A program made the translations under genes and the position numbers. Source: Acidimicrobiales bacterium (GTDB lineage: Bacteria > Actinomycetota > Acidimicrobiia > Acidimicrobiales > CATQHL01). From it: DNA of 64,000 bases. The DNA lies in contig CBDEFI010000006.1 in the NCBI GenBank assembly GCA_965237375.1, positions 736,610 to 800,609 of the forward strand, written 5' to 3'. Of the stretch, positions 1,316 to 59,342 are shown one piece after another (the first letter of the stretch is position 1; the number at the start of each line of letters is the position of its first letter). Under the pieces are notes generated by a model that searched no databases, was not told the origin of the DNA, and saw nothing but the letters and a program-made list of their open reading frames with translations.

Positions 1316-1953
1316 CGAGATGCCCGGGGCCCGCGCCACATGAGCGTGAGGGTGGCGCCGGCATCCACGCTGTCCACCTCGTCGATCCGACGGAAGCCCA
1401 GACGGTCGTAGAACGCAAGGTTGCGGGGGTTGGAGGACTCCAGGTACGCCGGCAGCCCCAAGCGGTCGCAGCGGGCCAGCATGGGCGCGAGTACGCGTGC
1501 GCCCAGCCCCCGGCCCTGCCCGCCCGGCGTGACACCCACAGCCGCCAAGTGCCAGTGCTCGGTGGCGGGTGCACGGCGGGCGAATCGGGCGAAGGACGCC
1601 AGCGCCACGGGGGCGCGCTCGGCGAGCAGGCTCTCGACCATCCGGCGGAAGCCGGCGACAACGGCCGGGGGTTGGGGCGCCCAGCCGGGGGGGTGCCAGA
1701 CGGCCGCGGCCGATCCGTCTCCGGTGACGTGCAGTTCGGCGCCCGGCGGCGGGTTCAGCAGCATGAAGCGCCACCAGGTTGCCATGTGCACCGCCCGCTC
1801 ACCGGCGTCGGCGCTCTCGAACAGCCAGGCGAACAGCGGGTCGTCGGCGAAGGCGTCCTTGAGTAGGGCGGCGATGTCGTCGGACCGCTCGGTGCCGACG
1901 CGGCGCACCTCGGACAGGCGCGCAATTTCGCTGGGCCTGCGTTCGGTGTTCAC
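1312..1953 (-). CDS. GNAT family N-acetyltransferase
   Basis: AFADDP, HWHLAAVGV...QGRGLG, AYLESSNPRNLAFYDRLGF; GTG at 1953 with GGGGAGGA RBS (alternative in-frame GTG at 2064). Confidence 0.85.
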   Translation of the reverse strand: MNTERRPSEIARLSEVRRVGTERSDDIAALLKDAFADDPLFAWLFESADAGERAVHMATWWRFMLLNPPPGAELHVTGDGSAAAVWHPPGWAPQPPAVVAGFRRMVESLLAERAPVALASFARFARRAPATEHWHLAAVGVTPGGQGRGLGARVLAPMLARCDRLGLPAYLESSNPRNLAFYDRLGFRRIDEVDSVDAGATLTLMWRGPRASR

Positions 1954-2067
1954 CGATTCCTCCCCGGCGTCGGGGCGCTGTGGCGCGTTCGCACGGTCAG
2001 CCGAGCCCGCAAGGGTCGGATGTCGCGCCGTGGCACCTCGCCGTACCGGTTCGCCACAACGCACTCT

Positions 2068-4251
2068 TCATGACTTGTCGAAGAAATCCACGTCGGTGTC
2101 GCTCAGCAGCAGGTCGATCTCGTCAGCCAGGGCATCGTCCGGCCCGCCGCCGTCCACGATCTCCGAAGCCGCCGCTCGAGCCCGCTCGACCCAGTCCCTG
2201 TCCTTGCGCAGGGACGCCAGTTTCAGGTCGCTACGCCCCGTCTGGCGGGAGTCCATGATGGTGCCCTCGCCGCGCAACTCCAGGTCGATCTCCGACAATT
2301 CGAAGCCGTCGGTGCTGTCCACGAGGGCCTGCATGCGCTGGAGCGCACCCGCCGGCGGGTCGTCGCTCACGAGGAAGCACCAACCCGGCCAGGAGCCCCG
2401 GCCCACCCGGCCCCGCAGCTGGTGCAGTTGGGCCATACCGAAACGGTCGGCACCCAGGATCACCATGACGGTTGCGTTGGCCACGTCCACGCCGACCTCG
2501 ATAACGGTGGTGGCCACCAGCACGTCGATGCGGCCGTCGCGGAACGCTGCCATGATCGGCTCCCGCTCGCCGGCCCGCAGCCGTCCGTGCAGGAGACCGA
2601 GCCGCAGGCCCTCCAACTCGCCCGCCTGCAAGTCGGCGTGCACGGCCTCCGCGCCGGTGGCGTCGATCTTGTCCGACTCCTCGATCAGGGGGCACACCAC
2701 GTATGCCTGGCGCCCACCGGCCACCTCGGCACGCAGACGCTCCCAGACCGCACCCTGGTCGGCGGTGGCGGTAACGGCGATGGTTGTCACGCCGGCCCGA
2801 CCTGCCGGCAACTCGGCCAACTGCGAAACGTCCAGGTCGCCGTAGACGGTCATCGCCGCCGTACGGGGAATGGGCGTGGCGGTCATCACCAGCACGTCGG
2901 GCAGGGCTTCGTCGGTGCTCTTGGTACGAAGCGAGGCGCGCTGCTCGACACCGAAGCGGTGCTGCTCGTCCACGACGGCCAGGCCCAGGGACCGGAACGT
3001 CACCTCCTCGCCGATGAGGGCATGCGTTCCCACCACCAGGTCCACGTCCCCGTTGGCCAGACCGCCCAGCACCCGGGAGCGAGCAGCCGCCCGGGTGCGG
3101 CTGCTCAGCAGCTCCAGGGATACCGCCGGGAGGCCTCCCAGCGCCAAGCGCCCGCCGGCGCGGGCACCCCGGCGCGCTCCGGCACCATCGAGGGATGCCA
3201 GAAGCCGGTTCAGCCCGAGGTGGTGCTGCTCGGCCAGAACCTCCGTGGGCGCCATGAGCGCCGCCTGGCGTCCACCCCCGACGACCGCCAGCATGGCCAT
3301 CAGCGCCACGACGGTCTTGCCCGACCCCACCTCGCCCTGCAGGAGACGGTGCATGGGCCACGCCTTCCCCAAATCGGCCAGGATCTCGGCGACGGCGACG
3401 CTCTGGGCTGCGGTCAGCTCGAACGGCAGCCGCTCCCGGAACGCCTCCAGCAGAGCCCGGTCGACCGGGTGGGCGATTCCCTTCCCGGCGCGTTCGCGCT
3501 CCCTCTTGCGCCGCAGCAGCACGACCTGCATCCGCAGCAGTTCGTCGAAAACCAACCGGGCGCGGGCACGGGCCACGTCGGCGAACGACTCCGGGTTGTG
3601 CATGAGGCGGAGGGCCTCGAAGCGGCCGCACAGGCCGTGGCGTGCCAGCAGGAACCGCGGCACCGTCTCGGCGATGCCGCGGTGCTCGCAGCGACGCAGC
3701 CCCTCGCCCACCATCCGGGCGATCTCCCAGGTGGTGATGGACGCCTTGGCGGACAGCGGGTAGACGCCGAAGATGCCTCCGGTGCGGTCACCCACGAGGT
3801 CCACCACGGGGTTGGTCATTTGCCGGGTGCCCCGGTACACCTCCAGGCGCCCGAACAGCACCGCTTCGGCGCCCTCGGCCAACTGGCTCTTCCGCCACGG
3901 TTGGTTGAAGAAAACGCATCGCAAGCGCCCGCCCTCGCGGTCGCTGACCGTGACCTCCACCCGCGCTCGCCCCTTGCGTCCCGGCACGGAGATCACCTTC
4001 TCGACGGTGGCCAGGACCATGGCGTCCTCGCCCGTACCGAGTTCGGAGACGGTGGCCTCGCGGCTGCGGTCGAGGTAGCGCCGGGGGTAGTACGTCAGCA
4101 GATCCAGCAGGTTCGCCACGCCCAGTTCGGCCAGGGCACCGATCCGGCGCCCCCCGGCACTGCGCAGGCGATCCAAGGGGATGCCGGCGAGGTCCCGAGA
4201 GGTCAGCGCCGCGGGGACCTCCACCACCGATCCGGGGGCGCCGCCGGTCAC
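2068..4251 (-). CDS. recG: ATP-dependent DNA helicase RecG
   Basis: LLQGEVGSGKT, MAPTEVLAEQH, DEQHRFGV, MTATPIPRT, QLHQLRGRVGRG; start placed at GTG 4251 (approximate). Confidence 0.95.
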   Translation of the reverse strand: MTGGAPGSVVEVPAALTSRDLAGIPLDRLRSAGGRRIGALAELGVANLLDLLTYYPRRYLDRSREATVSELGTGEDAMVLATVEKVISVPGRKGRARVEVTVSDREGGRLRCVFFNQPWRKSQLAEGAEAVLFGRLEVYRGTRQMTNPVVDLVGDRTGGIFGVYPLSAKASITTWEIARMVGEGLRRCEHRGIAETVPRFLLARHGLCGRFEALRLMHNPESFADVARARARLVFDELLRMQVVLLRRKRERERAGKGIAHPVDRALLEAFRERLPFELTAAQSVAVAEILADLGKAWPMHRLLQGEVGSGKTVVALMAMLAVVGGGRQAALMAPTEVLAEQHHLGLNRLLASLDGAGARRGARAGGRLALGGLPAVSLELLSSRTRAAARSRVLGGLANGDVDLVVGTHALIGEEVTFRSLGLAVVDEQHRFGVEQRASLRTKSTDEALPDVLVMTATPIPRTAAMTVYGDLDVSQLAELPAGRAGVTTIAVTATADQGAVWERLRAEVAGGRQAYVVCPLIEESDKIDATGAEAVHADLQAGELEGLRLGLLHGRLRAGEREPIMAAFRDGRIDVLVATTVIEVGVDVANATVMVILGADRFGMAQLHQLRGRVGRGSWPGWCFLVSDDPPAGALQRMQALVDSTDGFELSEIDLELRGEGTIMDSRQTGRSDLKLASLRKDRDWVERARAAASEIVDGGGPDDALADEIDLLLSDTDVDFFDKS

Positions 4252-4258
4252 CGGCCCG

Positions 4259-4628
4259 TTACTCGACGCCCCAGGTGGTACTGGTGGTAGAGGGGTTGGC
4301 CCCCCGCACACCCGCGCCCGGCCACTATTCGACGCCCCAGGTGGTACTGGTGGTACAGGGGTTGGCCCCCGAACACCCGCGCCCGGCCACTATTCGACGC
4401 CCCAGGTGGTACTGGTGGTAGAGGGGTTGGCCCCCGAACACCCGCGCCCGGCCACTATTCGACGCCCCAGGTGGTACTGGTGGTAGAGGGGTTGGCCCCC
4501 GAACACCCGCGCCCGGCCACTATTCGACGCCCCAGGTGGTACTGGTGGTAGAGGGGTTGGCCCCCCGCACACCCGCGCCCGGCCACTATTCGACGCCCAC
4601 GTAATAGTGGTAGAGGGGTTGGCCCCCC
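4259..4628 (-). repeat. Tandem array of five 65-66 bp copies of the DAK2 gene 3' end plus the source copy
   Basis: Plus-strand CGACGCCC anchor recurs at 4264, 4330, 4395, 4460, 4525 and 4591; no unique spacers. Confidence 0.95.
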
Positions 4629-14444: not shown

Positions 14445-14985
14445 ATGAAGGCAGCCGTCTACCACGGGCGTCGAGACGTGCGGATCGAGGACGTGCCGCG
14501 GCCCGAACCCGGACACGGCGAACTCCTCGTCCAGGTCACCGGCGCCGGGTGCCGCCGAAACCGTTCGCACGAGCCGCCACACCCCCCTCGCCGAGCACCT
14601 CGCCGAGTTGCGACCCACGGTCGTCTACGAGTGCACGGGCGCCCCGGCGGCCCCGCAGGCTGCGGTGGACCTGGTGCGCAGAGGCGGCCGGGTGGTCGTC
14701 GTCGGCCTGCAGAAGGCTCCGGTACCGGTGGACCTCCTCTCGGTCTCTCTGCAGGAGAAGGTACTGATCGGCACTCTGGCCCACGTGTTCGGAGCCGACT
14801 TCGGGCATGCCGTCGAGCTGCTGGAATCGGCGACGGACGTGTGGTCACGGGTGGCACCGGTCGTGCTGCCTCTGGACGAACTCGTGGAGGTCGGCCTGCG
14901 GCCCATGGTCGAGGGCGGCCCGGCGCCGATCAAGACACTCCTGGACCCCCGCATCGATGCCGCCCGGCCGATGCGGGTGGCGTGA
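14445..14985 (+). pseudogene. Internally deleted, frameshifted Zn-dependent dehydrogenase
   Basis: MKAAVYHGRRDVRIEDVP...VTGAG joined near 14550 to the C-terminal part VVYECTG...GGRVVVVG...IKTLLDP in another frame; catalytic core missing. Confidence 0.8.
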
Positions 14986-15025
14986 AGCCCGCACGGCCCG
15001 CCCGCGCAAACGAACGGAGACGCCA

Positions 15026-15925
15026 GTGACCTCTGAGGACGCCACCACCGGTCCGGCCGTCGGATTCTCGGGCCTCGGCCGCATGGGTCGGCCCATGGCC
15101 CGGCACCTGGTTGCGGCCGGCTTCGACCTGGTGGTCCACAACCGCACGGCCGCCCGCGCCGAGGCGTTCGCCGCCGACACCGGCGCCCGCACGGCTACCA
15201 CGCCACGGGAACTGGGACGGGCCTGCCCGATCGTGGTCACTATGGTGGCCGACGGGCCCGCGCTGCTGGACCTGATCGACGGTCCCGACGGCCTCGCTAC
15301 CGGTCTGGGCGCCGGCGGCGTCGTGGTGGACATGGGCACGACGGGTATGGAGCACACGCACCTGGCCCGAGCGCACCTCGCCGACGTCGGCGTACAACTC
15401 GTGGAGGCCCCGGTCTCGGGCAGCATCGCCGCGGCGGAGGGCAGGACGCTCCTCATCATGGCCGCCGGCGAATCCGCTGCCGTGGACGTGGCGCTGCCGG
15501 TGCTCGAGGCGCTCTCGCCCAAGGTGACGCGGGTGGGCGGACCGGGCGCCGGCGCGGCCATGAAGCTGGCCGTCAACTCCGTGCTGTACGCCATCAACGG
15601 GGCCATCTCGGAGTCCCTCGTGCTGGCCGAACGGGTGGGTATCGACCGCTCCACGGCCTACGACGTGTTCGCCGCCTCGTCGGTGGCGGCGCCGGTGGTC
15701 CACTACCGGCGGGCGGTGTTCGAGCACCCCGAGGACACCCCTGTCAGCTTCGCCATGAAGCTGGCCGTCAAGGACCTGGACCTGGCTCTGGCGCTGGCCG
15801 CCGATGTCGGCGCGCCGATGCCGCAGGCCGAGACGAACCGGGCCGTGGCCGCCGACGCCGTGGCCGCGGGCCTCGGTGAGGCCGATCTCGGACAGGTGGC
15901 CGTCCACCTGCGGGGAAGCCCCTGA
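15026..15925 (+). CDS. NAD(P)-dependent oxidoreductase, 3-hydroxyisobutyrate dehydrogenase family
   Basis: GLGRMGRPMA, EAPVSGS, GAAMKLAVN, KDLDLAL. Confidence 0.9.
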   Translation: MTSEDATTGPAVGFSGLGRMGRPMARHLVAAGFDLVVHNRTAARAEAFAADTGARTATTPRELGRACPIVVTMVADGPALLDLIDGPDGLATGLGAGGVVVDMGTTGMEHTHLARAHLADVGVQLVEAPVSGSIAAAEGRTLLIMAAGESAAVDVALPVLEALSPKVTRVGGPGAGAAMKLAVNSVLYAINGAISESLVLAERVGIDRSTAYDVFAASSVAAPVVHYRRAVFEHPEDTPVSFAMKLAVKDLDLALALAADVGAPMPQAETNRAVAADAVAAGLGEADLGQVAVHLRGSP

Positions 15926-39965: not shown

Positions 39966-39996
39966 CGCTCACCCACCGAGTGTGGCTCAGGCGTCT

Positions 39997-40134
39997 GCTG
40001 GATAGCCCATCTGCAGCGCAGGGTCGGATCGCTCGGCAGTGGATTCCGGCCTCCGCCGGAATGACGGAAAAGGTGGGCGGGGGAATGACGGAAAAGGTGG
40101 GCGGGGGAATGACGGGAAAGGTGGGCGGGGGAAC
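39997..40134 (-). repeat. REP/MITE-like element copy 2 plus three 24-bp tandem units
   Basis: Minus strand GTCATTCCGGCGGAGGCCGGAATCCACTGCC; plus-strand GGAATGACGGAAAAGGTGGGCGGG-type units at 40058, 40082, 40106. Confidence 0.85.
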
Positions 40135-40158
40135 GCCGCAGCACTCTTGCGGACGGGC

Positions 40159-40935
40159 TCACAGGTCGAAGTCCACGACGACGGGGGCGTGGTCGGAGGG
40201 TTTGGTGCCCTTGCGAGCGTTGCGGTCGACGATGATGCCCCCGGCTCGCGCCGCCAGCGGCGCCGTGGCCATGATGTGATCGATACGCATCCCCTGGCGC
40301 TTGTGGAAGCGGCCGGCCTGGTAGTCCCAGAACGTGTAGAGGCCGTCGATGTCGGGGTAGCGGTCACGGAACACGTCGACGAGACCCCAGTCGCACAGCG
40401 CCCGCCAGGCGGCGCGCTCGGGTTCGGTGACGTGCGTGGCGCCGGCGAAGGCGCCGACGTCCCAGACGTCGCGGTCCTCCACCGCCACATTGAAATCGCC
40501 CGCCACCACCACGGCGCCGGCCGGGTCGCAGACCGCCTCGAGATGGGCGCGCAGACGCCCGAACCAGGCCAGCTTGTAGCGGTAGTGCTCGTGGTCGGGC
40601 TCGCGGCCGTTGGGCACGTACACGCTGGCCACCCGCACGCCACCGCAGGTGGCCCACAGCACCCGGGCGTCGCGGTCCGCACCGGCCCCGTCGGCGAACC
40701 CGGCGGCCACGTCATCGAGCCCCAGCCGGCTGCAGACGGCCACCCCGTTCCAGCGCCCCTCACCGTGGTGGGCGCACTCGTAGCCGAGCGCCTCGAAGAC
40801 GGCGTGGGGGAAGTCGGCCTCGGCCATCTTCGTCTCCTGCATACACACCACATCGGGCTCGACCGCCGCCAGCCAGGGCTCGACGCGGTCGAGGCGCGCC
40901 CGCAGCGAGTTCACGTTCCACGTCACCAGGCGCAC
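40159..40935 (-). CDS. xth: Exodeoxyribonuclease III / AP endonuclease
   Basis: TWNVNS, QETK, WNGVA, YVPNG, GDFNVA, RIDH, SDHAP. Confidence 0.95.
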   Translation of the reverse strand: MRLVTWNVNSLRARLDRVEPWLAAVEPDVVCMQETKMAEADFPHAVFEALGYECAHHGEGRWNGVAVCSRLGLDDVAAGFADGAGADRDARVLWATCGGVRVASVYVPNGREPDHEHYRYKLAWFGRLRAHLEAVCDPAGAVVVAGDFNVAVEDRDVWDVGAFAGATHVTEPERAAWRALCDWGLVDVFRDRYPDIDGLYTFWDYQAGRFHKRQGMRIDHIMATAPLAARAGGIIVDRNARKGTKPSDHAPVVVDFDL

Positions 40936-46318: not shown

Positions 46319-47893
46319 GTGGGTCGCCTTCCCGAGATGATCGCCGCCTCGGCCGGCGCCCTCTCCCGTGCCACCGGGCGGGGCGGCGGCACGAGCTTGC
46401 CGGGGATGGTGCTGAACCGGCTGGAACCGGGTGCGCTCGCCCGGCTGGGCGGGGGCCTTGGCGGCAGCGCGGTGTACATCTCGGCCACCAACGGCAAGAC
46501 CACCACGGCAAGGCTGCTGAGCGCCTGCCTGCGCGCCGACGGCCGTGACGTGACGGCCAACCCCGCCGGCGCCAACCTGGCGAGCGGAGTCACTGCCGCC
46601 CTGCTCGCCAGGCAGCGGCGTCGGCGCGCCACCGAGCGAGCCCGCATCCGCAGACGCGGCAGCGCCGACGGAGAGATGACAGGCTGCGGCGGCATCGGCG
46701 TCTTCGAGGTCGACGAGGGCGCCCTCGGTCAAGTCGCCGGGGCACTGCAACCCAGGGCCCTGGTGCTCATGAACCTGTTCCGGGACCAACTCGACCGCTA
46801 CGGCGAGTTGGAGGCCATCGCCGAGCGCTGGGGCGATCTGGCCCGCAGCCTGGGCCCGGCCACCACCCTGGTGCTCAACGCCGACGACCCGGCGCTGGCG
46901 CACCTCGGCGTCGGCCGCACCCCCGAGCCCATGTTCCAGCCGTACTGGCCGGAGGCGGCGCCGGAAAGCATCGGCGCAGACCCCGTTGACTCACCAATGT
47001 CAGTGTTCTCCTGGCAGTCGCCGTCGCTGCGGCGCATCGGCGCCGACCCCCCGAACGTGGTGCTGTTCGGCATCGACGACCCGGGCGTGGGGCGCCCCGG
47101 CCTGCCCCACGCCGCCGACACGGTGCGCTGCGGCAACTGCGGCAACCCGCTCAGTCACGACTTGGTGACCGTGGGGCACCTGGGGCACTGGCGCTGCGAG
47201 AGTTGCGGGCTGCGGCGGCCCCAACCCCACATCAGCGCCCGCCGCGTGCGACTCGACGGCCTCGACCGCCTGGAGCTGACGATCGCCGGGGCCGACGGGC
47301 CCGGCGGCGCCGACCTTGAACTCAGCGCCGGGCTGGGGGGCCTGCACAACGCCTACAACGTGACCGCGGCGGTGGCGGCAGCCGCCGTCCTGGGGGCGCC
47401 CCCCGAGGCCGTGCGGGCGGGCATCGCCGGCGTGCAAGCGGCGTTCGGTCGTGCCGAGCAGGTGAGCCTCGACGGGCGCACGCTGCGGCTGCTGTTGGCC
47501 AAGAACCCCACGGGCGCCAACGAGAACATCCGCTGCGTGCTGGCCGAGCCCGCACCGCTGCACCTGCTGGTGGTGCTCAACGACCGCACCGCCGACGGGC
47601 GTGACCCATCGTGGATATGGGACGTGGACTACGAGCCTCTCTGGGGCCGCATCGGCAGCGTGACCCTGGCGGGCGACCGATGCTGGGAACTGGCGCTGCG
47701 GTTCTCCTACGGCGGGCTGGACTCCGAGCGGCTCGACGTTCGGGAGAGCCTGCCCGACGCTCTCGACGCCGCCGTGGCCGCCACCCCGCCGGGCGGCGTG
47801 CTGTACGCGCTCCCCACCTACACCGCCCTGCTGGACCTGCGGGCCGAATTGGTGCGCCGCGGCGCCACCCACGACTTCTGGCGCGAAACGTGA
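46319..47893 (+). CDS. murT: MurT, lipid II isoglutaminyl synthase ligase subunit
   Basis: GTSLPG, TNGKTTT, EVDE, NLFRDQLDRYGE, CxxC...CxxC, KNPTG, DGRDPSWIWD, TYTA; GTG 7 nt after TACGAT. Confidence 0.9.
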   Translation: MGRLPEMIAASAGALSRATGRGGGTSLPGMVLNRLEPGALARLGGGLGGSAVYISATNGKTTTARLLSACLRADGRDVTANPAGANLASGVTAALLARQRRRRATERARIRRRGSADGEMTGCGGIGVFEVDEGALGQVAGALQPRALVLMNLFRDQLDRYGELEAIAERWGDLARSLGPATTLVLNADDPALAHLGVGRTPEPMFQPYWPEAAPESIGADPVDSPMSVFSWQSPSLRRIGADPPNVVLFGIDDPGVGRPGLPHAADTVRCGNCGNPLSHDLVTVGHLGHWRCESCGLRRPQPHISARRVRLDGLDRLELTIAGADGPGGADLELSAGLGGLHNAYNVTAAVAAAAVLGAPPEAVRAGIAGVQAAFGRAEQVSLDGRTLRLLLAKNPTGANENIRCVLAEPAPLHLLVVLNDRTADGRDPSWIWDVDYEPLWGRIGSVTLAGDRCWELALRFSYGGLDSERLDVRESLPDALDAAVAATPPGGVLYALPTYTALLDLRAELVRRGATHDFWRET

Positions 47894-48040
47894 GCACGCC
47901 CACCGTCCGGCTCTGCCACCTCTACCCGCGGGACCTGGACCCGCGGGCGGAGCTGGTACGCCGCGGCGTCACCACCCATGACCTCGGGCGCGAAACGTGA
48001 ACACCCCCACCGTCAGGCTCTGCCACCTTTACCCGCGGGA
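47831..48040 (+). repeat. Tandem duplication (~107 bp period) of the murT/gatD junction
   Basis: Two diverged copies of CTGGAC...GCGCGAAACGTGA...CTCTGCCACCT.TACCCGCGGGA. Confidence 0.9.
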
Positions 48041-50362: not shown

Positions 50363-52423
50363 GTGCCGCACCCCTTTGGGGAGCCTGCCGACGGTTACCG
50401 GCCCCGCAGACCGCGGCGCACCCGCCTGCTGATCATCGTGGTGGCGGCGGCCGCCGCCGGGTTCCTCGGCATCTACATCGCCGACATGGTCGTGCGTTCC
50501 GGGGAGTCGGTGAACAACGTGACCCTCGACGGTGTCGACGTGGGCGGGCTCTCCGAGGCCGAGATTCGCACCGAGGTCGAGCGCCTGGCCGGCAACTTCG
50601 CCGCCCGCGACATGCCGCTGCTGACGCCGGGCGGGACGATTTCCGCCACCACCGGCCAACTCGGGTTCAGCCTGGACGTGGAGGCGAACGTGGACGCCGC
50701 CCTGGCAGCCGGGCAGACCGGCGCATCGCCCATCGCCTGGGCCTCGTCGTTCTTCGGCGAGCAGGAACTGCACGCCATCATCCGCTGGGACGAGCAGACG
50801 GCGCTCGGCTTCGTGGACGGCTTCGAGACGCTGCTGGTCAAGAACAGCGAGCCGGCTCGGCTGGCGCTGCACAACGGAGTATTCGTGGTGGAGCCGGGGG
50901 TGACCGGCGAGCAGGTGACGGCCGGTGACGTCCTGGCGGCGCTGCGCCGGGCGGGCGGCGCGCTGACCCCGCCGGAGGTCCTGATCGTCGAGGCCTCGAC
51001 GTTCCCCCCGCCGGTCACAGCCGTCGAGCTGCAACCCACCGCCGACTACGTGAACGCCCGGACGGCCCGCGGGGTGGTCGTCCACGTCGAGGATGTCATC
51101 CGTGACTTCGTGCCCCACGAGGTGCGGGACTGGCTCACGGTCACGCCCGGTCCCGAGCCTGCCATCGACCTCGACACCGCCTACGTCACGCGGATCGTCG
51201 AGGACCGTCTGGCGAACATCGCCGTGCCGGGCTACGCAGGGGCCTTTACCGTGGTCAACGGCGTGCCCACGCCGACGAGCGCCAGGCTCGCCCGCCGCTG
51301 CTGCGCACCGAACGCCGGCGAGGCGGTGCTCGCCGCGCTCCGGGCCGGCCACCACGAAGTGCGGCTGCACCTCACCGATGTTCCCGAAAGTGCAGGCGAC
51401 CTGATCGCCCAGACGGGCATCCGGGAGTTGGTGGGCGAGTTCACCACCTACTACACGCCCGGCCAGTCGCGTGTGACCAACATCCGCCGCATCGCCGAGT
51501 TGGTGCAGGGTGCAATCATCGGTCCCGGCGAGTCGTGGTCGGTGAACGACTACGTGGGGCGCCGCACCGAGGCCAAGGGGTTCGTGCCTGGCGGCGTCAT
51601 CTACGCGGGCATATTCCAGGCCGACGTGGGGGGCGGCGTGTCGCAGTTCGCCACCACGATGTTCAACGCCGCGTTCTTTGCCGGCCTGGACTTCGGGGAG
51701 TACCAGGCGCACTCCATCTACATCTCCCGCTACCCCTACGGTCGCGAGGCCACGATCTCCTACCCCCACCCCGATCTGCAACTCGTCAACAACACGCCCT
51801 ACTCCGTCCTCCTGTGGCCGACCGCTACCGAGGAATCCGTCACGGTGCAGATCTACAGCACCCTGCACATGACCGTCACCCAGAGCGACCAGCGGGAGGA
51901 GCCCGACGACCTGTGCACCAAGGTCTTTACCGAGCGGACGAGAACGTTCGCCGACGGATTGGCCGTCACCGACGTCGTGCGGGCCAACTACCAGCCCGCC
52001 GAAGGCCTCAACTGCCAGGGCGAGCCGTTCGTGCCACCGCCGGACTGCGCACCGGGCCAGGGCGCCGTGGACTCCGACAACGACGGCTGGGCCGACGCCT
52101 GCCGGGCGCTCTGCCCGGTCGTCGCCGACGCCGGACCCGCGGACGGCGTGACAGAGGGCGAGGGCACGGCGACCGGGACGGAGAGAGCCGGGACCGGCGA
52201 CTGCGTGGCGGTCTGCACCGCGGTGCCCGAGGGCGATGGCGAGACCGACGTCGCGCCCTGCATCCCGCTCTGCGGGCCCGACGACGTCGACGCCCCGCCG
52301 GGATCGTGCGCCCGACCCGAGGACGTCCCGACGGCGCCCGACACCGAACCCGAGTCCACTCCTGAGGGCACGCCGACATCCGAACCTCCGACCGACGCGG
52401 AACCTCAGGGCACCGACGCGTGA
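50363..52423 (+). CDS. Membrane-anchored VanW family protein with Cys/Asp-rich C-terminal extension
   Basis: N-terminal TM helix; RVTNI, GGGVSQFATTMFNA, HSIYISRYPYGREAT, DLQLVN; start approximate. Confidence 0.85.
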   Translation: MPHPFGEPADGYRPRRPRRTRLLIIVVAAAAAGFLGIYIADMVVRSGESVNNVTLDGVDVGGLSEAEIRTEVERLAGNFAARDMPLLTPGGTISATTGQLGFSLDVEANVDAALAAGQTGASPIAWASSFFGEQELHAIIRWDEQTALGFVDGFETLLVKNSEPARLALHNGVFVVEPGVTGEQVTAGDVLAALRRAGGALTPPEVLIVEASTFPPPVTAVELQPTADYVNARTARGVVVHVEDVIRDFVPHEVRDWLTVTPGPEPAIDLDTAYVTRIVEDRLANIAVPGYAGAFTVVNGVPTPTSARLARRCCAPNAGEAVLAALRAGHHEVRLHLTDVPESAGDLIAQTGIRELVGEFTTYYTPGQSRVTNIRRIAELVQGAIIGPGESWSVNDYVGRRTEAKGFVPGGVIYAGIFQADVGGGVSQFATTMFNAAFFAGLDFGEYQAHSIYISRYPYGREATISYPHPDLQLVNNTPYSVLLWPTATEESVTVQIYSTLHMTVTQSDQREEPDDLCTKVFTERTRTFADGLAVTDVVRANYQPAEGLNCQGEPFVPPPDCAPGQGAVDSDNDGWADACRALCPVVADAGPADGVTEGEGTATGTERAGTGDCVAVCTAVPEGDGETDVAPCIPLCGPDDVDAPPGSCARPEDVPTAPDTEPESTPEGTPTSEPPTDAEPQGTDA

Positions 52424-52517
52424 CCTCCCACACGGCCACTATGTCAACCGCAGAACCGGCTCCCCCGGCCGACGGCGCCCCCATCACGGGCGTCGCGGCC
52501 GGCACGGACATCGACCG

Positions 52518-53735
52518 GTGAATGCCCGCGCCGCCGACGTGGCCGTCGTTGGGGCCGGGCCGGCGGGCATCGCGGCCGCCATCGGCCTGGCCCGTGCCGG
52601 GCTCTCGGTCGTCGTGATGGACAAGACCCGCTTCCCCCGCGACAAGTACTGCGGCGACGGCCTCACCACCGGGGCGCTCCGACTACTGGAGCACCTCGGG
52701 CTGGACCCGACGTCGGTCACGTCGTGGCACCCGTCGCAGCGACTGGTGGTCCGTTCGCCGTCGGGCCGGCAGGTCGTCTATCCCCTCCCCCCGCAGGGCC
52801 AGTACGCGGCCACCGCGCAGCGCCGCCATCTCGACGCGGCCCTCGTCGGCCTGGCACGGCACGCCGGCGTGGAGGTTCTGGACGGCTCCGCCTGCGACGG
52901 CGTGACCGCCACCGACGACCGTGTGGTGCTCAGCACCCGCGGCGCCGGCTCGCTGCATGCCCGCTACGCGGTGGCCGCCGACGGGATGTGGTCACCGGTG
53001 CGCCGGATGCTGGGACTGGCGGTGCCGTCGTACCGGGGCGACTGGCACGCCTTCCGCCAGTACCACGCCGGGGTCGGCCCCGAGGCCGCCGAGGCACTGC
53101 ACGTGTGGTTCGAGCCCGAGATCCTGCCGGGCTACGTCTGGTCGTTCCCGCTGCCCGGCGGGCGGGCCAACGTGGGCTTCGGCGTCTCGCGGTCGACGCA
53201 CCGCACCGGCAACCTGGGGCGGCTGTGGACCGAACTGCGCCAACGCCCGCACATCGCCGCTGTGCTGGGGCCGGAGGCCACACCCGCCGACCGGCCTCGC
53301 GCCTGGCCGATCCCCACGCGGCTCGGCGACCTGCCTCTGGCCGCACCACGGGTGCTGTTCTGCGGCGACGCCGCCGGCGTGGGCGACCCCATGACCGGCG
53401 AGGGCATCGGCCAGGCCCTTCTCAGCGGACTGCTGGCGGCCGACGCGCTGGCCACAGCCGGACCCCTGGACCACGACACAGCGGGGCGGCGGTATCGGGC
53501 AGCCGTGGACCGCCACCTGCGTCGGGACTTCCGCTTCACCCGCACGCTGGGGCGGGCCCTGCGCACACCCACCGGGGTGCGGGCGGCCGTGCGGATCTCG
53601 GGGGCAACCCCGTACACGCGCCGCAACTTCGCCCGCTGGCTCTTCGAGGACTACCCCCGGGCGCTCGTCCTGACGCCCGACCGCTGGCAACGCGGCGCCC
53701 TCGGCGGCGGCGCCTTCGGGGACCGGGCAGCCTGA
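52518..53735 (+). CDS. Geranylgeranyl reductase family FAD-dependent oxidoreductase
   Basis: VVGAGPAG, FPRDKYCGDG, AADG, GYVWSFP, GDAAG...GEGI. Confidence 0.88.
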   Translation: MNARAADVAVVGAGPAGIAAAIGLARAGLSVVVMDKTRFPRDKYCGDGLTTGALRLLEHLGLDPTSVTSWHPSQRLVVRSPSGRQVVYPLPPQGQYAATAQRRHLDAALVGLARHAGVEVLDGSACDGVTATDDRVVLSTRGAGSLHARYAVAADGMWSPVRRMLGLAVPSYRGDWHAFRQYHAGVGPEAAEALHVWFEPEILPGYVWSFPLPGGRANVGFGVSRSTHRTGNLGRLWTELRQRPHIAAVLGPEATPADRPRAWPIPTRLGDLPLAAPRVLFCGDAAGVGDPMTGEGIGQALLSGLLAADALATAGPLDHDTAGRRYRAAVDRHLRRDFRFTRTLGRALRTPTGVRAAVRISGATPYTRRNFARWLFEDYPRALVLTPDRWQRGALGGGAFGDRAA

Positions 53736-56122: not shown

Positions 56123-56877
56123 TCTGTGGTTCTGGCGCCGGTGATGAAGGCGACCAGATCGTCCTTGGTCACCTCGTCGATGGTGGCCTCGGCTGTCTTG
56201 CGGCCCTGACGCAGCACGACGACGTGATCGCACACGGCGGTGACGCGGTCCATGTTGTGGGTGATCAGCAGCACCGCCACGCCGCCCGCACGCAGGTTGC
56301 CGATGAGGTCCATCACGCGGGCGGTCTGCTCCACCCCGAGAGCCGCAGCAGGCTCGTCGAGCAGCACGATGCCCTGACCCCAGGCCACGGCCCGCCCGAT
56401 GGCGACCGCCTGGCGCTGCCCGCCCGACAGGAGCCCCGCAGCCCGGCGCAGCGACGGGATGCGGATGTCCAGGCGCCCCAGCGTTGCCTCGCACTCGGCA
56501 CGCATGCGCTTGTGGTCGAGCAGGCCGATGCGGCGTCCGATCGCCCCGCCGCGGCAGTGCTCGCGGTTCAGGAACAGATTGGACGCCACATCGAGGGTGT
56601 CGATCACCGCCAGCGACTGGTGGACAGTCTCGATGCCGAGTGTGCGGGCGGCGTCGGGCGACGGGATGGATGTCCCGACGCCGTCGACGGTGAATCTGCC
56701 GGAGTCGGGTTGGTACACCCCGGCGAGGCACTTCACCAGCGTGGACTTGCCGGCGCCGTTGTCGCCCAGCAGGGCGGTGACACGCCCGTACCGCAGGTCG
56801 ATGGACACGTCGTCGAGGGCCTGCACCGCCCGGAAGGCCTTCGAGACGCCCTCGGCGACCAGGGCAGGGGTACTCAT
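56119..56877 (-). CDS. Sugar ABC transporter ATP-binding protein
   Basis: GDNGAGKST, LSGGQRQ, LLDEP, ITH. Confidence 0.93.
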   Translation of the reverse strand: MSTPALVAEGVSKAFRAVQALDDVSIDLRYGRVTALLGDNGAGKSTLVKCLAGVYQPDSGRFTVDGVGTSIPSPDAARTLGIETVHQSLAVIDTLDVASNLFLNREHCRGGAIGRRIGLLDHKRMRAECEATLGRLDIRIPSLRRAAGLLSGGQRQAVAIGRAVAWGQGIVLLDEPAAALGVEQTARVMDLIGNLRAGGVAVLLITHNMDRVTAVCDHVVVLRQGRKTAEATIDEVTKDDLVAFITGARTTE

Positions 56878-56961
56878 GGCGGACGGCTCATCGGAGTATC
56901 CGGTCGGAGGGCCGGCGTAGGAGGACTGCGGAGCGGCCCGGCTTGGGAGAACCACCGCCGC

Positions 56962-58170
56962 TCACCGAACTTCCCTGTCGGCCGGTCGACCGAGAGTGTC
57001 CCAGATACCTGCGACCACCGGCACCCCGGCGGAGACGCCGGACAGGCCCACCACGTGCGCACGCGTCACGAAGGCCTGGACGCGGAACCCGAAGATCACG
57101 GTGTCGCCCTCGCCGACGTTGCGGTTCTGCGGCGGGTGCAGCCTGGCGTAGTAGTCGATGCCGGCCGGATCGGGGAAGTCCACCGCCACCGGCGCCCCGG
57201 AGGAAACCTCCGACGGGTCAGCGGCCACGAGCGCCGCCGGGCTGTAGGGCTCGAACACAGGATCGATGTACAGCCCCCCGCCGAAGCACAGGGGAACACC
57301 GGCGTGGACGTGCGACACCTCGCTGAGGTAGAGCACCCCCGGCCGCTCGGGCAGGTCCCCCACGGTATGCAGCGGCGTCGTGCCCGTGAGGCCGTGACCC
57401 GGCTCCACCTGCGTGGCGCCCGCCTCGGCGAGCAGGTCGAGGACCGCGGTGGACGTGGTGCCGGGAGCGTTCACCTCCACGGTGGCCTCAGGGCCGAGAC
57501 GGCGCCGGGCCAGGTCCGCAGCACGGGCCAGGGTTTCGACGTTGCGGGTGGTGCGGGCACCGCCGGTGGCAGGGTCGAACAGCAGGGCCGGGAAAGTGGT
57601 CACCCCGGCGAAGCGGGCCCCGGCCATCGCCTCCACCCGGTCGATCACACCGGCGAGTTCGTTCAGCGGCACGCCGCCCTCGTGGCCGGGGTAGAACTCG
57701 TCAGCCTCGTCGCAGACGCGCACCAGCAGATCCTGCGTACGCCCTGCCGCTGCGGCCGCGGCCGCGGCTTCGGCGGCTTTGCCCGTGCTGAAGACCGTCC
57801 AGTGGTCGGGTCGCAGCGCGGCCGCCTCGGCCGCCTCGGCCCGCGGCACCTGCACGAGGTGGCCCAGATGGCCCAGCCGGTGGCCGTTGGAGACGACGGC
57901 CCGGGCGCAGTCCATGTCCACCGCCACGTAGCCGTCCACGCCGCCGCCGGTCATGGCCTCCAGCGCACCGGGCGCCCGGCCCAGTTGCTTGGTCATGGCG
58001 TAGACGGTGAGCCCACGCCGGTGGGCCGCCGCACAGAAGCCGGCGGTGTTGGCGGCGACGGCATCGAGATCCAGCACGTAGCTGTTGGCGGGGATCCCAC
58101 CCGACCGGTGCAGCGCCACGGCGGCCTGCACGAACTCGAGATTCCGCCGCATCAACACCTGCAAGAACAC
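56962..58170 (-). CDS. YhfX-like PLP-dependent enzyme (alanine racemase N-terminal fold)
   Basis: MFL...RRN, YVLDLD, YAMTKQ (PLP Lys), GHLGHLVQVP, YPGHEGG, EPGHGLTGTTP, YLSEVSH, FRVQAFVTR. Confidence 0.82.
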   Translation of the reverse strand: MFLQVLMRRNLEFVQAAVALHRSGGIPANSYVLDLDAVAANTAGFCAAAHRRGLTVYAMTKQLGRAPGALEAMTGGGVDGYVAVDMDCARAVVSNGHRLGHLGHLVQVPRAEAAEAAALRPDHWTVFSTGKAAEAAAAAAAAGRTQDLLVRVCDEADEFYPGHEGGVPLNELAGVIDRVEAMAGARFAGVTTFPALLFDPATGGARTTRNVETLARAADLARRRLGPEATVEVNAPGTTSTAVLDLLAEAGATQVEPGHGLTGTTPLHTVGDLPERPGVLYLSEVSHVHAGVPLCFGGGLYIDPVFEPYSPAALVAADPSEVSSGAPVAVDFPDPAGIDYYARLHPPQNRNVGEGDTVIFGFRVQAFVTRAHVVGLSGVSAGVPVVAGIWDTLGRPADREVR

Positions 58171-58199
58171 GATCCGGCCCTCCTAGGAAACCGCTGCCC

Positions 58200-58284
58200 G
58201 ATCCACGGGCAACTCGAGCTGGCCCGCCGGGCAGTGGATTCTGGCCCCGGATCGGGTCCGGGACAGGCTCTCCGCCGGAATGAC
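58200..58284 (-). repeat. REP/MITE-like element copy 3 (with nested hairpin)
   Basis: Minus strand GTCATTCCGGCGGAGAGCCTGTCCCGGACCCGATCCGGGGCCAGAATCCACTGCC. Confidence 0.8.
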
Positions 58285-58319
58285 AGAAGAGGTTGACCGG
58301 CGCATTACTCGGCGGCCTC

Positions 58320-59342
58320 CTAACGCTCGCGCCGCTCGCGCATGCTCAGGGCCACGGCCACGACGATGATGACCCCGCGGGCGATCATCTGGTCGGCCAC
58401 CCGGAGGCCCATGAGGATGAGGCCGTTGTTGAGCATCGCCATGATGGCCGCCCCGGTCACGGCCCCTGCCACCGATCCGCGGCCACCGAACAGGCTCGTC
58501 CCGCCGATGACCACGGCCGCGATCACGGTCAGCAGATCGTTCTCGCCGAGGTCGTGGCGGCCGATGGCCAGCCGCCCGGCCAGCAGCACCCCGGCGAAGG
58601 CCGCCGTTGTGGCGCTGGCGACCAGGGCGCCGATGCGGACGCGGTCGGTGCGGATGCCGAGCAACGTGGCCGCATCCCGGTTGGCGCCGGTCGCCAGAAC
58701 GTGTCGCCCCCAGCGCAGGTGGCGCAGCGTCACGTGCCCCACGACCAGCGCCACCGCCGTCCAGATCAGCAGTGACGACACGGGGCCGGCCGACCCGGCG
58801 CCGAACAGCGCAGAGAAGGTGTCGTTGCGGATGGGGTACGACTGCAGGTTGTTCATGTTGCGGGCGATCCCGCTGATGACCCCGAGCATCCCCAGCGTCA
58901 CCAGGAACGACGGGATGCGAACCTTCACCGAGATGATTCCGTTGAGGAGCCCCGCGGCAACGCCGACCCCCACGGCGGCCAGCGCGCCCGCCAGGAACCC
59001 TGCGGCGGTGACCACCTCGGCCGCCACGAGGGACGACAGCGCCACCACCGACCCCACCGACAGGTCGATCTCCGCCGCCGCCAGGGCGAACGTCATCCCC
59101 ACCGCCATCACCGCGATGGGCGCCGCCTGCCGGCCGATGTTGAGCAGGTTCGCCGAACTCAGGAACCCGTCGTCGTGGAGGATGGCGGCGAAGACCGCCA
59201 GGATGAGGGCGAACGCCAGATAGACGACGTACTGCCGGAGATCGCCGTCGAGGCGCCGGCGAGCCCGGCGGCCGCCCGAGGGAGGCGGCCGGCGGGCGCG
59301 CCGGGCTCTGATCCGGCTCACGAGGGCGATCTTCGCTCCCAC
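58320..59342 (-). CDS. Sugar ABC transporter permease (RbsC-type)
   Basis: IDLSVGS, IPSFLVTLG, WGRHVLATGAN, AAVVIGGTSLFGG. Confidence 0.92.
   Translation of the reverse strand: MGAKIALVSRIRARRARRPPPSGGRRARRRLDGDLRQYVVYLAFALILAVFAAILHDDGFLSSANLLNIGRQAAPIAVMAVGMTFALAAAEIDLSVGSVVALSSLVAAEVVTAAGFLAGALAAVGVGVAAGLLNGIISVKVRIPSFLVTLGMLGVISGIARNMNNLQSYPIRNDTFSALFGAGSAGPVSSLLIWTAVALVVGHVTLRHLRWGRHVLATGANRDAATLLGIRTDRVRIGALVASATTAAFAGVLLAGRLAIGRHDLGENDLLTVIAAVVIGGTSLFGGRGSVAGAVTGAAIMAMLNNGLILMGLRVADQMIARGVIIVVAVALSMRERRER

Follow-up and report, generated by a model that had tools for sequence, protein, structure and literature searches.

Mini-ORFs bridging intra-operon spacers in an Acidimicrobiales genome: a chance layer and a candidate doubly coupled relay

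The non-random component of the mini-ORFs that bridge spacers between co-directional genes of this Acidimicrobiales genome (G000) is made up of the junction letters and the spacer length (L) modulo 3. The architecture, [AG]TGA (RTGA) followed by 3n+1 bases and another [AG]TGA, is clearly non-random; it is enriched, specific in its phase and maintained across species despite sequence turnover. We lean, with some reserve, towards the reading that a chance layer, which forms the majority, and a real subset of candidate doubly coupled relays (about 39 of the genome's 65 single-ORF cases) together explain the bridges. From this pattern we infer translation of the mini-ORFs, to the benefit of the downstream gene. 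The original prediction, which interpreted the mini-ORFs as a relay that keeps ribosomes moving from gene to gene, is partly supported.

In the 64,000-nt stretch of DNA that was analysed (the window), all ten predicted mini-ORFs were confirmed, each with an ATG or GTG start, a stop at its end and a length divisible by 3 (Table 1). Genes were called independently of the mini-ORFs by our own simple caller (2954 genes, 80% coding, some starts truncated), and only 4-nt or 1-nt overlaps were accepted for a strict bridge; the counts rest on this caller and a curated annotation could shift them. Five of the eight spacers predicted to be bridged were strictly bridged and two others were bridged under looser rules. 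The eighth, permease>yhfX, is unbridged under both the strict and the relaxed rule, and the prediction itself had described it as linked without overlaps.

Table 1. Mini-ORFs and repeats of the predicted spacers (window coordinates; L, spacer length)
Feature	Positions	Strand	Strictly bridged	Details
recG>GNAT	1950..2071	-	no	mini-ORFs 2071-1997 and 1994-1950, 2 nt apart; L=114
FakA(DAK2)>recG chain	4248..4586	-	yes	four mini-ORFs: 4586-4455, 4455-4390, 4390-4325, 4325-4248
65-bp tandem repeat	4263..4627	.		5.6 copies; overlaps the FakA 3' end by 40 nt; TRF
ADH fragment>HIBADH	14982..15029	+	yes	GTGA to GTGA; L=40
xth>antiporter	39959..40162	-	yes	67 codons; passes through a 24-bp repeat (x3.2) and a hairpin element of dispersed type
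107-bp tandem duplication of the murT/gatD GTGA junction	47831..48040	.		2.0 copies, 85% alike; TRF
murT>gatD	47890..48000	+	no	111 nt; GTGA on murT stop to GTGA on gatD start; L=103
vanW>reductase	52420..52521	+	yes	GTGA to GTGA; L=94
yhfX-like>ABC ATPase	56874..56965	-	yes	mini-ORFs 56965-56888 and 56891-56874, linked through ATGA overlaps; L=84
permease>yhfX	58183..58305	-	no	ORF overlaps neither neighbour

At 69% G+C, stops are few and usually TGA, often with G or A in front, so that many co-directional spacers become tiled by ORFs accidentally. Among the co-directional spacers of 10-350 nt in the window, 5 of 28 were strictly bridged compared with 2.84±0.95 in 300 dinucleotide shuffles (at least 5 in 5% of them), and the relaxed rule gave 6 compared with 3.13 expected from shuffles. 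In the whole genome, strict bridges were found in 97 of 1228 co-directional spacers (79.2±5.4 in 100 dinucleotide shuffles) and 125 spacers were bridged under the relaxed rule (94.8±5.6 in 100 shuffles). Strict bridging therefore lies above the shuffles, but these reach 79 of the 97 cases, which makes about four-fifths of the bridges a product of GC-rich DNA; with some 80% expected by chance, calling the relay window-wide was an overstatement. Once junction letters and phase are given, the interior stays open with a shuffle P of 1.00 at ADH>HIBADH, where it is thus uninformative, 0.90 at vanW>reductase and 0.69 at murT>gatD. Both these open interiors (69-100% of shuffles) and the share of strict bridges that shuffles supply speak for pure chance with flexible start choice, in which GC-rich open frames and the common GTGA suffice and no selection acts. 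The same can be said of the home-made gene calls.

A CTG overlapping the upstream TGA (CTGA pseudo-start) served as the control. Of 312 ORFs starting with RTG at the upstream TGA, 65 had their end exactly at the downstream start, compared with 41 of 488 starting with CTG (Fisher p = 6.6e-7); the relative G014 gave 46/199 and 35/399, respectively (p = 3.4e-6). That the control likewise peaks at the downstream start agrees with chance, whereas the phase bias was seen with RTGA only. Where RTGA was combined with a TGA at the downstream start, L mod 3 of 0, 1 and 2 was counted 22, 77 and 26 times (CTGA: 62, 54 and 45), and in G014 10, 52 and 11 times (CTGA: 47, 48 and 42). The bias persisted among downstream starts validated by 1:1 N-terminal alignment of the two genomes (6, 29 and 5 vs 26, 23 and 10). 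In the 974 spacers of 40-350 nt, strict bridges dropped from 68 to 35.5 or 23.1 after the deletion of one or two interior bases, whereas a 3-base deletion kept 67.8 of them. Stop avoidance within the mini frame is weak and the phase holds most of the signal. Between co-directional neighbours, the stop of the anchored ORF was RTGA in 165/312 cases vs 183/488 in the control (p = 2e-5); the effect was absent before convergent genes (16/49 vs 88/302 in the control, p = 0.6), a comparison that the original prediction had proposed. A test independent of the downstream start call gave 177/363 vs 288/834 (p = 4e-6) in G000 but lacked significance in G014 (115/265 vs 238/596, p = 0.37), the latter being in line with chance. 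Since the phase bias is bound to RTGA, recurs in the relative, survives ortholog-validated starts and is missing before convergent genes, we regard chance alone as unlikely.

The RTGA tetramer looks active, judging by its avoidance at genes that precede a convergent neighbour: there, a purine stands ahead of TGA in 95 of 535 genes and ahead of TAG or TAA in 152 of 355 (p = 8e-16), the values for G014 being 77/353 and 91/255. RTGA is avoided at these terminal genes and also in the phase reading far into the next gene, as would be expected of insulation, i.e. if reinitiation at RTGA is real but selection merely stops stray translation before the next gene, without any downstream promotion. Shine-Dalgarno motifs are also commoner at bridged downstream genes (38/65 vs 86/247); most of these genes thus have their own motif and the relay is therefore not required for initiation. 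However, any stop in the spacer would suffice for insulation, whereas early stops are not enriched (ORFs ending over 10 nt ahead of the start: 114/312 vs 189/488 in the control) and a 2.5-fold enrichment falls on the position of exact overlap. We assign insulation a low probability.

The murT>gatD mini-ORF is a bridge given a gatD start at 47997, which is backed by Pfam (GATase_3 from residue 8) and by ortholog alignment, while our caller had placed the start at 48042. All 11 spacer-bearing genomes (G000 and ten relatives) have a single open RTGA..RTGA ORF of 24 to 81 codons at this junction and a spacer of 3n+1 (L = 103, 67, 142, 136, 76, 67, 70, 142, 148, 208 and 238), and a -4 overlap replaces the spacer in five relatives, as checked in G014. 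The peptides are dissimilar past the first residues. The mini frame is open in 11/11 genomes, compared with 14/22 for the other two frames. The genomes are kin and these are consequently not 11 independent events, but there are nine distinct lengths, all in phase, and the resulting (1/3)^8 = 1.5e-4 also argues against chance. The spacer was created by the 107-bp tandem duplication (Table 1); as 107 is 2 mod 3, the copies of the gatD N-terminus and the murT tail are read in their native frames.

The candidate relay mini-ORFs are often born by such junction duplication. Flanks of the junction were alike at 11 or more of 15 bases, a duplication signature, in 8 of 59 RTGA/TGA spacers with L=3n+1 and in none of the spacers with a non-RTGA upstream stop. 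A second junction-flank duplication was found in contig C4 (a bridged TAGATG spacer with L=105), and the murT>gatD spacer contains internal repeats in several relatives. Together with the 107-bp duplication, these observations favour a neutral by-product: duplication of an RTGA junction gives both RTGA ends and, in one length class, an open frame composed of native coding segments without any selection on translation, and the in-frame class is concealed as an N-terminal extension. If duplication were neutral, spacers of the relay phase (L=3n+1) should be as frequent as those of the visible non-relay phase (L=3n), whereas 77 and 22 were observed in G000 and 52 and 10 in G014. Moreover, RTGA is depleted at L=3n (60 vs a CTGA-scaled expectation of about 106), and old, turned-over spacers are still 3n+1, as at murT>gatD. 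We hold a purely neutral origin to be improbable. The recognisable young duplications are in relay phase at a ratio of 8:2 only (p = 0.11).

The prediction also held that insertions and duplications persist inside operons if ribosome continuity is kept. This idea fits murT>gatD, yhfX>ATPase, which is bridged in 5/5 spacer-bearing genomes, and the 14 junction expansions between G000 and G014 (a -4 overlap in one genome and a spacer in the other, both protein termini aligning), of which 9 are bridged and in which L mod 3 was 1, 0 and 2 in 10, 3 and 1 cases. It did not apply to recG>GNAT and FakA>recG, which are bridged in 0 of 11 and 0 of 8 resolved relatives, respectively, and spacers with the dispersed repeat were not preferentially bridged (11/214 vs 68/873). 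Most bridged spacers are unique sequence, 68 of 79 having no second copy. From G000 to G014, bridging was conserved just modestly more often than in the control (17/39 vs 7/27, p = 0.19; 9/12 vs 6/14 with both termini validated, p = 0.13), and indels came in multiples of 3 in 6/9 vs 61/165 cases (p = 0.09). An open frame was kept across species at murT>gatD, where its sequence was not, and at yhfX>ATPase.

The yhfX>ATPase spacer (open-interior shuffle P = 0.04) is crossed by two ORFs in G000, by a single RTGA..RTGA ORF in three genomes with L=46 and by a single ORF in one with L=130; five relatives have a -4 overlap. At vanW>reductase, where independent contigs span the spacer without indels, G014 is bridged at equal length by an unrelated peptide and nine relatives have a -4 overlap. 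Two genomes speak against a relay at this junction: G012 keeps both RTGA ends out of phase (L=93) and the 171-nt spacer of G011 is unbridged. The xth>antiporter ORF, which crosses a hairpin core at 40043-40062, also has an open-interior shuffle P of 0.04, but the antiporter gene is broken (split into two ORFs) and the orthologous gene pair is absent from G014. The gene named ADH is a mere C-terminal fragment, the final 125 aa of a Zn-ADH.

All four ORFs predicted at DAK2>recG exist, but they belong to a single event, a local tandem repeat. The DAK2 gene product is FakA-like and each unit (periods 66, 65, 65, 65 and 66) is a copy of the FakA tail (..TTWGVE*) with a TAGTG junction. The ORFs are joined by 1-nt TAGTG overlaps and the last one ends with GTGA on the recG start. 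Within G000 the 65-bp unit is confined to this locus, and in G014 the full-length unit was not found, only partial matches of 14-22 nt (E of at least 0.12). The spacer is 6-29 nt long in seven of the eight resolved relatives, with an apparent overlap in L006. Bridging of recG>GNAT relies on the relaxed rule because of the 2-nt gap; L is 13-14 in eight and 116-340 in three of the resolved relatives, and its mini-ORFs are judged incidental. At permease>yhfX (L=11 in G014), contigs X1 and X2 (two runs of one study) skip 145 nt and have 8 other letters between, which shows that the repeat insertion is polymorphic.

The relay peptides were predicted to be unrelated in sequence, and they are indeed unconserved between relatives. 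Frames that stay open across species at two junctions could suggest functional small proteins. Such a function is nevertheless highly improbable, given the lack of sequence conservation, the variation in length at murT>gatD (24 to 81 codons), the absence of any Pfam match in the seven mini-ORFs tested and the flat G+C over codon positions (0.71/0.67/0.75, compared with 0.71/0.50/0.87 in genes), i.e. no coding periodicity.

The doubly coupled relay that we favour for the real subset would operate as follows. The usual intra-operon junction in this genus is the 4-nt RTGA overlap, at which a ribosome ending on the upstream UGA could reinitiate at the overlapping RUG. Such termination-reinitiation at overlapping gene pairs was reportedly described by Huber et al. 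in 2019. A tandem duplication or other insertion would split the junction and leave RTGA with each half, the upstream copy acting as a stop with an orphan start and the downstream copy as the true start with an orphan stop. With an insert of 2 mod 3, which makes the spacer 3n+1, the frame of the orphan start would close on the orphan stop, and ribosomes could reach the downstream gene through the mini-ORF by reinitiating twice in succession. Variants of other phases would uncouple the downstream gene or bring ribosomes into it in the wrong frame, and they would be lost, the mini-ORF peptide being a by-product.

The relay probably belongs with the known RTGA-coupled small ORFs and MIRU ORFs, as a variant coupled at both ends. 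According to the mycobacterial study of Shell et al. (2015, PLoS Genet, PMC4633059), RTGA-coupled small ORFs, whose TGA stop overlaps the RTG start of the following gene, are over-represented there too (23/220 vs 32/1000), their linkage but not their sequence is conserved, and ribosome delivery was proposed for them. Those ORFs precede the first gene and start where a leaderless transcript has its 5' end, whereas the ORFs reported here, known from sequence alone, start on the stop of the upstream gene inside the operon, are coupled at both ends, follow the 3n+1 rule and may originate from junction duplication. According to a review (PMC12548453, J Bacteriol 2025), the MIRU small ORFs of Supply et al. 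(1997) are similarly short intergenic units within operons that vary in tandem copies, as at FakA>recG, and their 4-nt overlaps with the stop and start on either side mean that their insertion affects expression little. In contrast to MIRUs, a dispersed repeat family, bridged spacers here mostly lack a second copy, the FakA>recG unit is confined to a single locus and no preferential bridging is seen at the dispersed hairpin repeat that this genome does have.

The letters at each mini-ORF end (ATGA/GTGA, TGATG/TAGTG) are those of -4/-1 overlapping gene pairs, and the mechanism is presumably shared. The overlap studies deal with direct gene-gene or uORF-gene overlaps (Huber 2023, PMC10666635; bioRxiv 10.1101/2022.06.01.494293), the latter including NUGA chains of uORF-uORF and uORF-gene in Mycobacterium tuberculosis, whereas an ORF intervenes here. 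Reinitiation was found to drop steeply with distance, being nearly gone at 20-38 nt (PMC10666635), and the overlap studies conclude that coupling is abolished by spacers longer than about that. A relay of the kind proposed here would circumvent this coupling limit of about 20-38 nt through the intervening ORF.

The original prediction held that mini-ORFs bridge eight co-directional spacers (written here as upstream>downstream gene) and relay ribosomes throughout the window. Each of its ten coordinate pairs was confirmed as an ORF that begins with ATG or GTG and closes with a stop codon. Among the 28 co-directional spacers of 10–350 nt in the window, five are bridged strictly, i.e. by mini-ORFs joined only by 4-nt or 1-nt overlaps; the number rises to six once gaps of up to 3 nt are tolerated (relaxed bridges). 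murT>gatD is an additional bridge after correction of the gatD start. In 300 dinucleotide shuffles of the 28 interiors, strict bridges numbered 2.84 ± 0.95 (at least 5 in 5% of the shuffles) and relaxed ones 3.13 ± 1.06, and the interior was open in 100% of the shuffles for ADH>HIBADH, 90% for vanW>reductase and 69% for murT>gatD. In the whole source genome (G000), 97 of 1228 spacers were bridged strictly versus 79.2 ± 5.4 after shuffling, and 125 versus 94.8 ± 5.6 under the relaxed definition. Since the shuffles nearly match the real count, most bridges are a product of stop-poor DNA. The genome-wide excess is thus present but small (97 vs 79), about four fifths of the bridges being due to chance. 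With this share of chance, and with three of the eight examples incidental or lying beside broken genes, the term window-wide relay is too strong.

The G000 genome comprises 3.83 Mb in 6 contigs with ~69% G+C, and the window occupies positions 736610-800609 of its contig C6. Genes were called by a self-written program combining a dicodon log-odds model with start-codon and Shine-Dalgarno (SD) weights in iterative training, and the resulting 2954 genes occupy 80% of the genome. Some genes are missed by this caller and N-termini are at times truncated; all counts depending on it were therefore set against internal controls from the same caller. The single relative used for genome-wide comparison was G014 from the same genus (2.8 Mb, same caller, recG 79% identical to that of G000). 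Coding density is only 80% in both genomes, and the G+C content of the spacers (0.69) equals the genome mean; either many genes were missed or the intergenic DNA is unusually long and GC-rich. Most gene labels in the window are backed by Pfam, the DAK2 gene being FakA-like and a start at 47997 fitting gatD (GATase_3). The Na+/H+ exchanger (antiporter) is divided between two ORFs that overlap; it could be a pseudogene with a frameshift, or the assembly could contain an indel. The 'ADH' gene encodes only the C-terminal part of a zinc alcohol dehydrogenase and is probably a gene remnant.

The bridges respond to the phase between the two junctions. A deletion of one or two bases in the interior alters only this phase, and in 974 spacers of 40–350 nt it lowered the number of strict bridges from 68 to 35.5 or 23.1, respectively, whereas a deletion of three bases left 67.8. 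The dominant bridged class carries NTGA at both ends. We compared RTGA stops (ATGA or GTGA, hence an overlapping start codon) with CTGA stops, where no start codon is available. Where the downstream start is overlapped by TGA, the spacer lengths L in G000 with L mod 3 = 0, 1 and 2 numbered 22, 77 and 26 after RTGA and 62, 54 and 45 after CTGA (chi-square p = 6e-6); in G014 the counts were 10, 52 and 11 versus 47, 48 and 42. The phase expected of a relay, L = 3n+1, therefore prevails in both genomes after RTGA. C-terminal frameshift remnants of the upstream gene were considered as a general cause and rejected, as they predict a phase bias after CTGA too, where it is absent; the vanW tail is complete in both genomes.

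When the frame opened by NTG on the upstream stop was followed to its end, the endpoint fell exactly on the downstream start in 65/312 RTGA cases and 41/488 CTGA cases in G000 (p = 6.6e-7), and in 46/199 and 35/399 in G014. No excess of endpoints was found more than 10 nt before the downstream start in G000 (114/312 RTGA vs 189/488 CTGA). Judged by these counts, a class of doubly coupled linker ORFs does exist, amounting to about 39 spacers in G000 beyond the control rate. Frameshifts or assembly errors at the N-terminus of the downstream gene predict a larger excess at starts without an overlapping TGA; 53 such cases were seen versus ~69 expected, and this explanation was rejected as well. 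Random start errors are not the cause of the phase bias either, since it persists with validated starts, i.e. those of downstream proteins aligning residue 1 to residue 1 between G000 and G014 (L mod 3 = 0, 1 and 2: 6, 29 and 5 RTGA vs 26, 23 and 10 CTGA in G000; 3, 23 and 2 vs 19, 18 and 17 in G014). One bias of the caller is an over-representation of RTGA stops with a start in the downstream frame (L = 3n+2) and without an overlapping TGA (30 and 66); these are probably true overlap starts cut off by the caller.

The comparison with convergent spacers suggested in the original prediction showed an effect in co-directional neighbours only: the anchored ORF ended in an RTGA context in 165/312 versus 183/488 co-directional cases (p = 2e-5), and before convergent genes there was no such effect (16/49 vs 88/302, p = 0.6). 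A pooled test of all genes which ignored downstream starts was significant in G000 (177/363 vs 288/834) and not significant in G014 (115/265 vs 238/596, p = 0.37).

Where the next gene is convergent, TGA stops have a preceding purine in 95/535 cases versus 152/355 for TAG or TAA stops in G000 (p = 8e-16), and in 77/353 versus 91/255 in G014; G makes up 34% of the third positions near gene ends. From this depletion, a start overlapping TGA seems to be avoided where it serves no downstream frame, which suggests that RTGA is an active reinitiation signal. The opposite case, RTGA overlaps, is frequent in the window.

According to the proposed mechanism, a ribosome would terminate on the upstream UGA, reinitiate on the overlapping RUG, translate the mini-ORF to the UGA overlapping the true start and, by a second reinitiation there, reach the downstream gene. 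The sequences show the doubly overlapping architecture, its enrichment, its dependence on phase and its upkeep across species; that the mini-ORFs are translated, and that the downstream gene gains from it, is what we infer. An SD motif is commoner before the downstream genes at bridged spacers (38/65 vs 86/247), which speaks against the relay being strictly required. The mini-ORFs are not ordinary small genes: their G+C content by codon position is flat (0.71/0.67/0.75 vs 0.71/0.50/0.87 in genes), without coding periodicity, none of the seven tested matched a Pfam family, and the peptides are unrelated in fourteen orthologous spacer pairs of G000 and G014. A scan of the whole window against Rfam at gathering thresholds detected no known RNA element.

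Five window junctions were examined in relatives, which are kin, and all are reported here. At murT>gatD, a −4 overlap was inferred in five relatives from HSPs overlapping by 103 nt and directly confirmed in G014. Ten other relatives have spacers of 67, 142, 136, 76, 67, 70, 142, 148, 208 and 238 nt, all 3n+1, with one open RTGA-to-RTGA ORF in 10/10 and little likeness among the peptides past their first residues. Together with G000 (L = 103), 11/11 spacers with 9 distinct lengths are in phase among these kin genomes; of the two remaining frames in each, 14/22 are open. In relative G004 this spacer contains internal tandem units of ~18 nt (..TERPNATERPNATERPDAT..; loci L182/L179/L181 = G004, G003/G005), and those of G003 and G005 have two copies each of the MS.S/P.. 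start segment. The junction looks like a hot spot of repeated duplication. At yhfX>ATPase, five relatives have a −4 overlap. In four others a single RTGA..RTGA ORF spans the spacer (L = 46 in three, 130 in one), and G000 has L = 84 with two ORFs, so that the linkage is kept in 5/5 spacer-bearing genomes. At vanW>reductase, nine relatives have a −4 overlap; the spacers of G000 and G014 (L = 94) are both bridged, with unrelated peptides, that of G012 (L = 93) has RTGA at both ends out of phase and the 171-nt spacer of G011 is unbridged. At recG>GNAT, 11 relatives have L = 13–14 (8) or 116–340 (3), none of them bridged and none with an RTGA stop. For FakA>recG, 8 of 11 relative loci were resolved, with 6–29 nt in seven and an apparent overlap in one; none was bridged.

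Orthologous spacers that keep the linkage without the sequence, as originally predicted, were thus observed at murT>gatD and yhfX>ATPase, less cleanly at vanW>reductase, and not at recG>GNAT or FakA>recG; the first three are good window examples of linker ORFs. Relay-like maintenance is thus observed at ancestral RTGA overlaps and not at ancestral short SD-bearing spacers. Contigs of four DNA runs covered the spacer at vanW>reductase and the one at yhfX>ATPase; none among the listed pieces spans murT>gatD, which is no evidence either way. Alternative forms occurred at permease>yhfX and yhfX>ATPase.

In G000, the GTGA junction has undergone a 107-bp tandem duplication, which makes up the murT>gatD spacer. 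The mini-ORF first runs through a copied gatD N-terminus and then through a copied murT tail, both in their native frame, which follows automatically from a duplication length of 2 mod 3. Similarity of the junction flanks (at least 11/15 bases) was found in RTGA/TGA spacers with L = 3n+1 (8/59), 3n (2/21) and 3n+2 (1/23), in 1/48 for RTGA stops without a downstream TGA (L = 3n+1), and in none of the spacers with a non-RTGA upstream stop. Fourteen junctions have a −4 overlap in one of G000 and G014 and a spacer in the other (both protein termini aligned); nine are bridged, and L mod 3 is 1, 0 and 2 in 10, 3 and 1 of them. Neutral duplication would yield L = 3n+1 as often as L = 3n, and the ratios 77:22 and 52:10 (binomial p ~1e-8 each) therefore require a phase-sensitive filter. 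Genome-wide evidence for conservation of bridging is weaker. RTGA-bridged spacers of G000 are also bridged in G014 in 17/39 cases versus 7/27 CTGA pseudo-bridges (p = 0.19, not significant), or 9/12 versus 6/14 with both termini validated (p = 0.13); of 215 unbridged spacers, only 1 has a bridged counterpart in the relative. Length differences between the two genomes are multiples of three in 6/9 bridged and 61/165 unbridged spacers (p = 0.09).

Dispersed repeats of the MIRU kind were rejected as carriers of the mini-ORFs: a second genomic copy exists for 11/79 bridged spacers of at least 25 nt versus 203/1008 unbridged ones. The FakA>recG chain is a local tandem repeat of 65–66 nt in 5.6 copies, present in G000 alone, whose unit consists of the FakA tail and the TAGTG junction; its four ORFs are one event. 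The unit was found nowhere else in G000, and G014 gave only partial matches of 14–22 nt (E ≥ 0.12) with no full-length copy.

Other repeats were observed in the window. A dispersed REP/MITE-like hairpin has the inverted-repeat core ATTCCGGC-N4-GCCGGAAT and conserved flanks (..GTCATTCCGGCGGAGGCCGGAATCCACTGCC..). G000 contains 67 strict copies, of which 65 lie outside called genes (co-directional spacers 46, convergent 15, divergent 4), and the 2.8 Mb of G014 contain 43; a longer seed gave ~125 blast matches. It also occurs in the recG>GNAT spacer of a relative (L006). Contigs from two runs in a single study lack the permease>yhfX copy, and the element may therefore be mobile. An AT-rich 23-bp tandem repeat, GATTAGTAGTGTAACAATACGAG, lies in a region otherwise of 68% G+C and may be an operator or promoter region.

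Features in the window with their positions
Feature	Position	Strand	Detail
RTGA overlaps (examples)	250-253; 1312-1315		
FakA>recG chain	4586-4248		TAGTG overlaps, final GTGA
ORF of 323 aa overlapping ADH fragment	14058-15029		no Pfam match
ADH fragment	14608-14985	plus	C-terminal 125 aa; ADH_zinc_N profile positions 59-127
AT-rich repeat, 2.6 copies	29911-29969		between gene ending 29742 (minus) and gene starting 30037 (plus)
Na+/H+ exchanger, whole	37633-39965	minus	
Exchanger ORF 1	39965-39321	minus	Pfam profile positions 6-155
Exchanger ORF 2	39762-37633	minus	Pfam profile positions 156-374 and Usp domain
Hairpin core	40043-40062		
Hairpin, longer variant	within 58183-58305		permease>yhfX
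Small-ORF TGA on downstream RTG	48000; 52521; 56874		
In-frame tandem repeat, 21-27 bp	60376-60523		Gly/Ala/Ser-rich N-terminal region of substrate-binding protein
In-frame tandem repeat, 24 bp	63654-63738		called ORF at the end of the window

On the common view, translational coupling requires overlapping or near-touching genes. In the experiments of Huber 2023 (PMC10666635) it declines within 20–38 nt of spacer and is lost beyond ~20–40 nt. Mycobacterial RTGA-coupled small ORFs at leaderless 5' ends are described in Shell 2015 (PMC4633059) as enriched, with the linkage kept and the sequence not, and coupling and SD motifs as coexisting. The ORFs described here share with them the TGA overlapping a downstream RTG (65 cases in G000, 46 in the 2.8 Mb of G014), a frequency above matched expectation (65/312 vs 41/488) with only a small excess over shuffles, and a linkage kept without the peptide (murT>gatD 11/11, yhfX>ATPase 5/5). 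In contrast to the leaderless ORFs, ours start, by sequence, on the upstream gene's stop codon. NUGA overlaps, including uORF–uORF chains, are given as common in M. tuberculosis in a preprint (bioRxiv 10.1101/2022.06.01.494293). According to a 2025 review (PMC12548453), a short ORF may only deliver a ribosome, and MIRUs are mobile units inserting with −4 coupling. The FakA>recG unit is similar to MIRUs in that its ORF shares bases with the neighbouring stop and start, and in varying in tandem copies between species (5.6 copies in G000 vs short spacers in relatives), but it is not dispersed at many loci (MIRU-like unit, 40–100 bp). As in termination–reinitiation gene pairs, the strict mini-ORFs have a 4- or 1-nt stop/start overlap at both ends. 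Different from these known systems are the double-ended coupling of unique sequence inside operons, the rule that spacer length is 3n+1, an origin in duplicated junctions and genus-wide maintenance with free sequence turnover. Full-text searches of main papers found no description of the 3n+1 rule, double coupling, junction-duplication birth or genus-wide maintenance; the supplementary tables of Shell 2015 and D'Halluin may list doubly overlapped uORF chains.

Of the relay interpretation, the phase-specific class of linker ORFs stands and the window-wide scope does not. A joint reading, which we offer tentatively as a little short of probable, is that RTGA reinitiation in this GC-rich genus is strong enough to impose a frame-like constraint on non-coding DNA. 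Spacers born from overlapped junctions may then vary freely in sequence and change length only in threes, an open 3n+1 linker ORF may be obligatory with the sole role of handing on the ribosome, and RTGA may be purged from stops without a downstream frame to serve. Three simple sequence statistics would serve as gauges of the imprint of reinitiation on a genome: the RTGA versus CTGA contrast, spacer length modulo 3 and the extent to which terminal genes avoid RTGA.

By means of a doubly overlapped linker ORF, coupled genes would be able to outlast insertions and junction duplications, e.g. murT and gatD, whose products work as a complex. The relay would account for some hypervariable 'non-coding' spacers that change length only by multiples of three, and annotators would gain a rule for spotting linker-ORF spacers together with a warning that an indel in an operon spacer which seems non-coding can have a polar effect on the gene behind it. 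If the joint reading is true, operon evolution in high-GC bacteria would follow a general, as yet unannotated rule that extends beyond MIRUs or leaderless uORFs.
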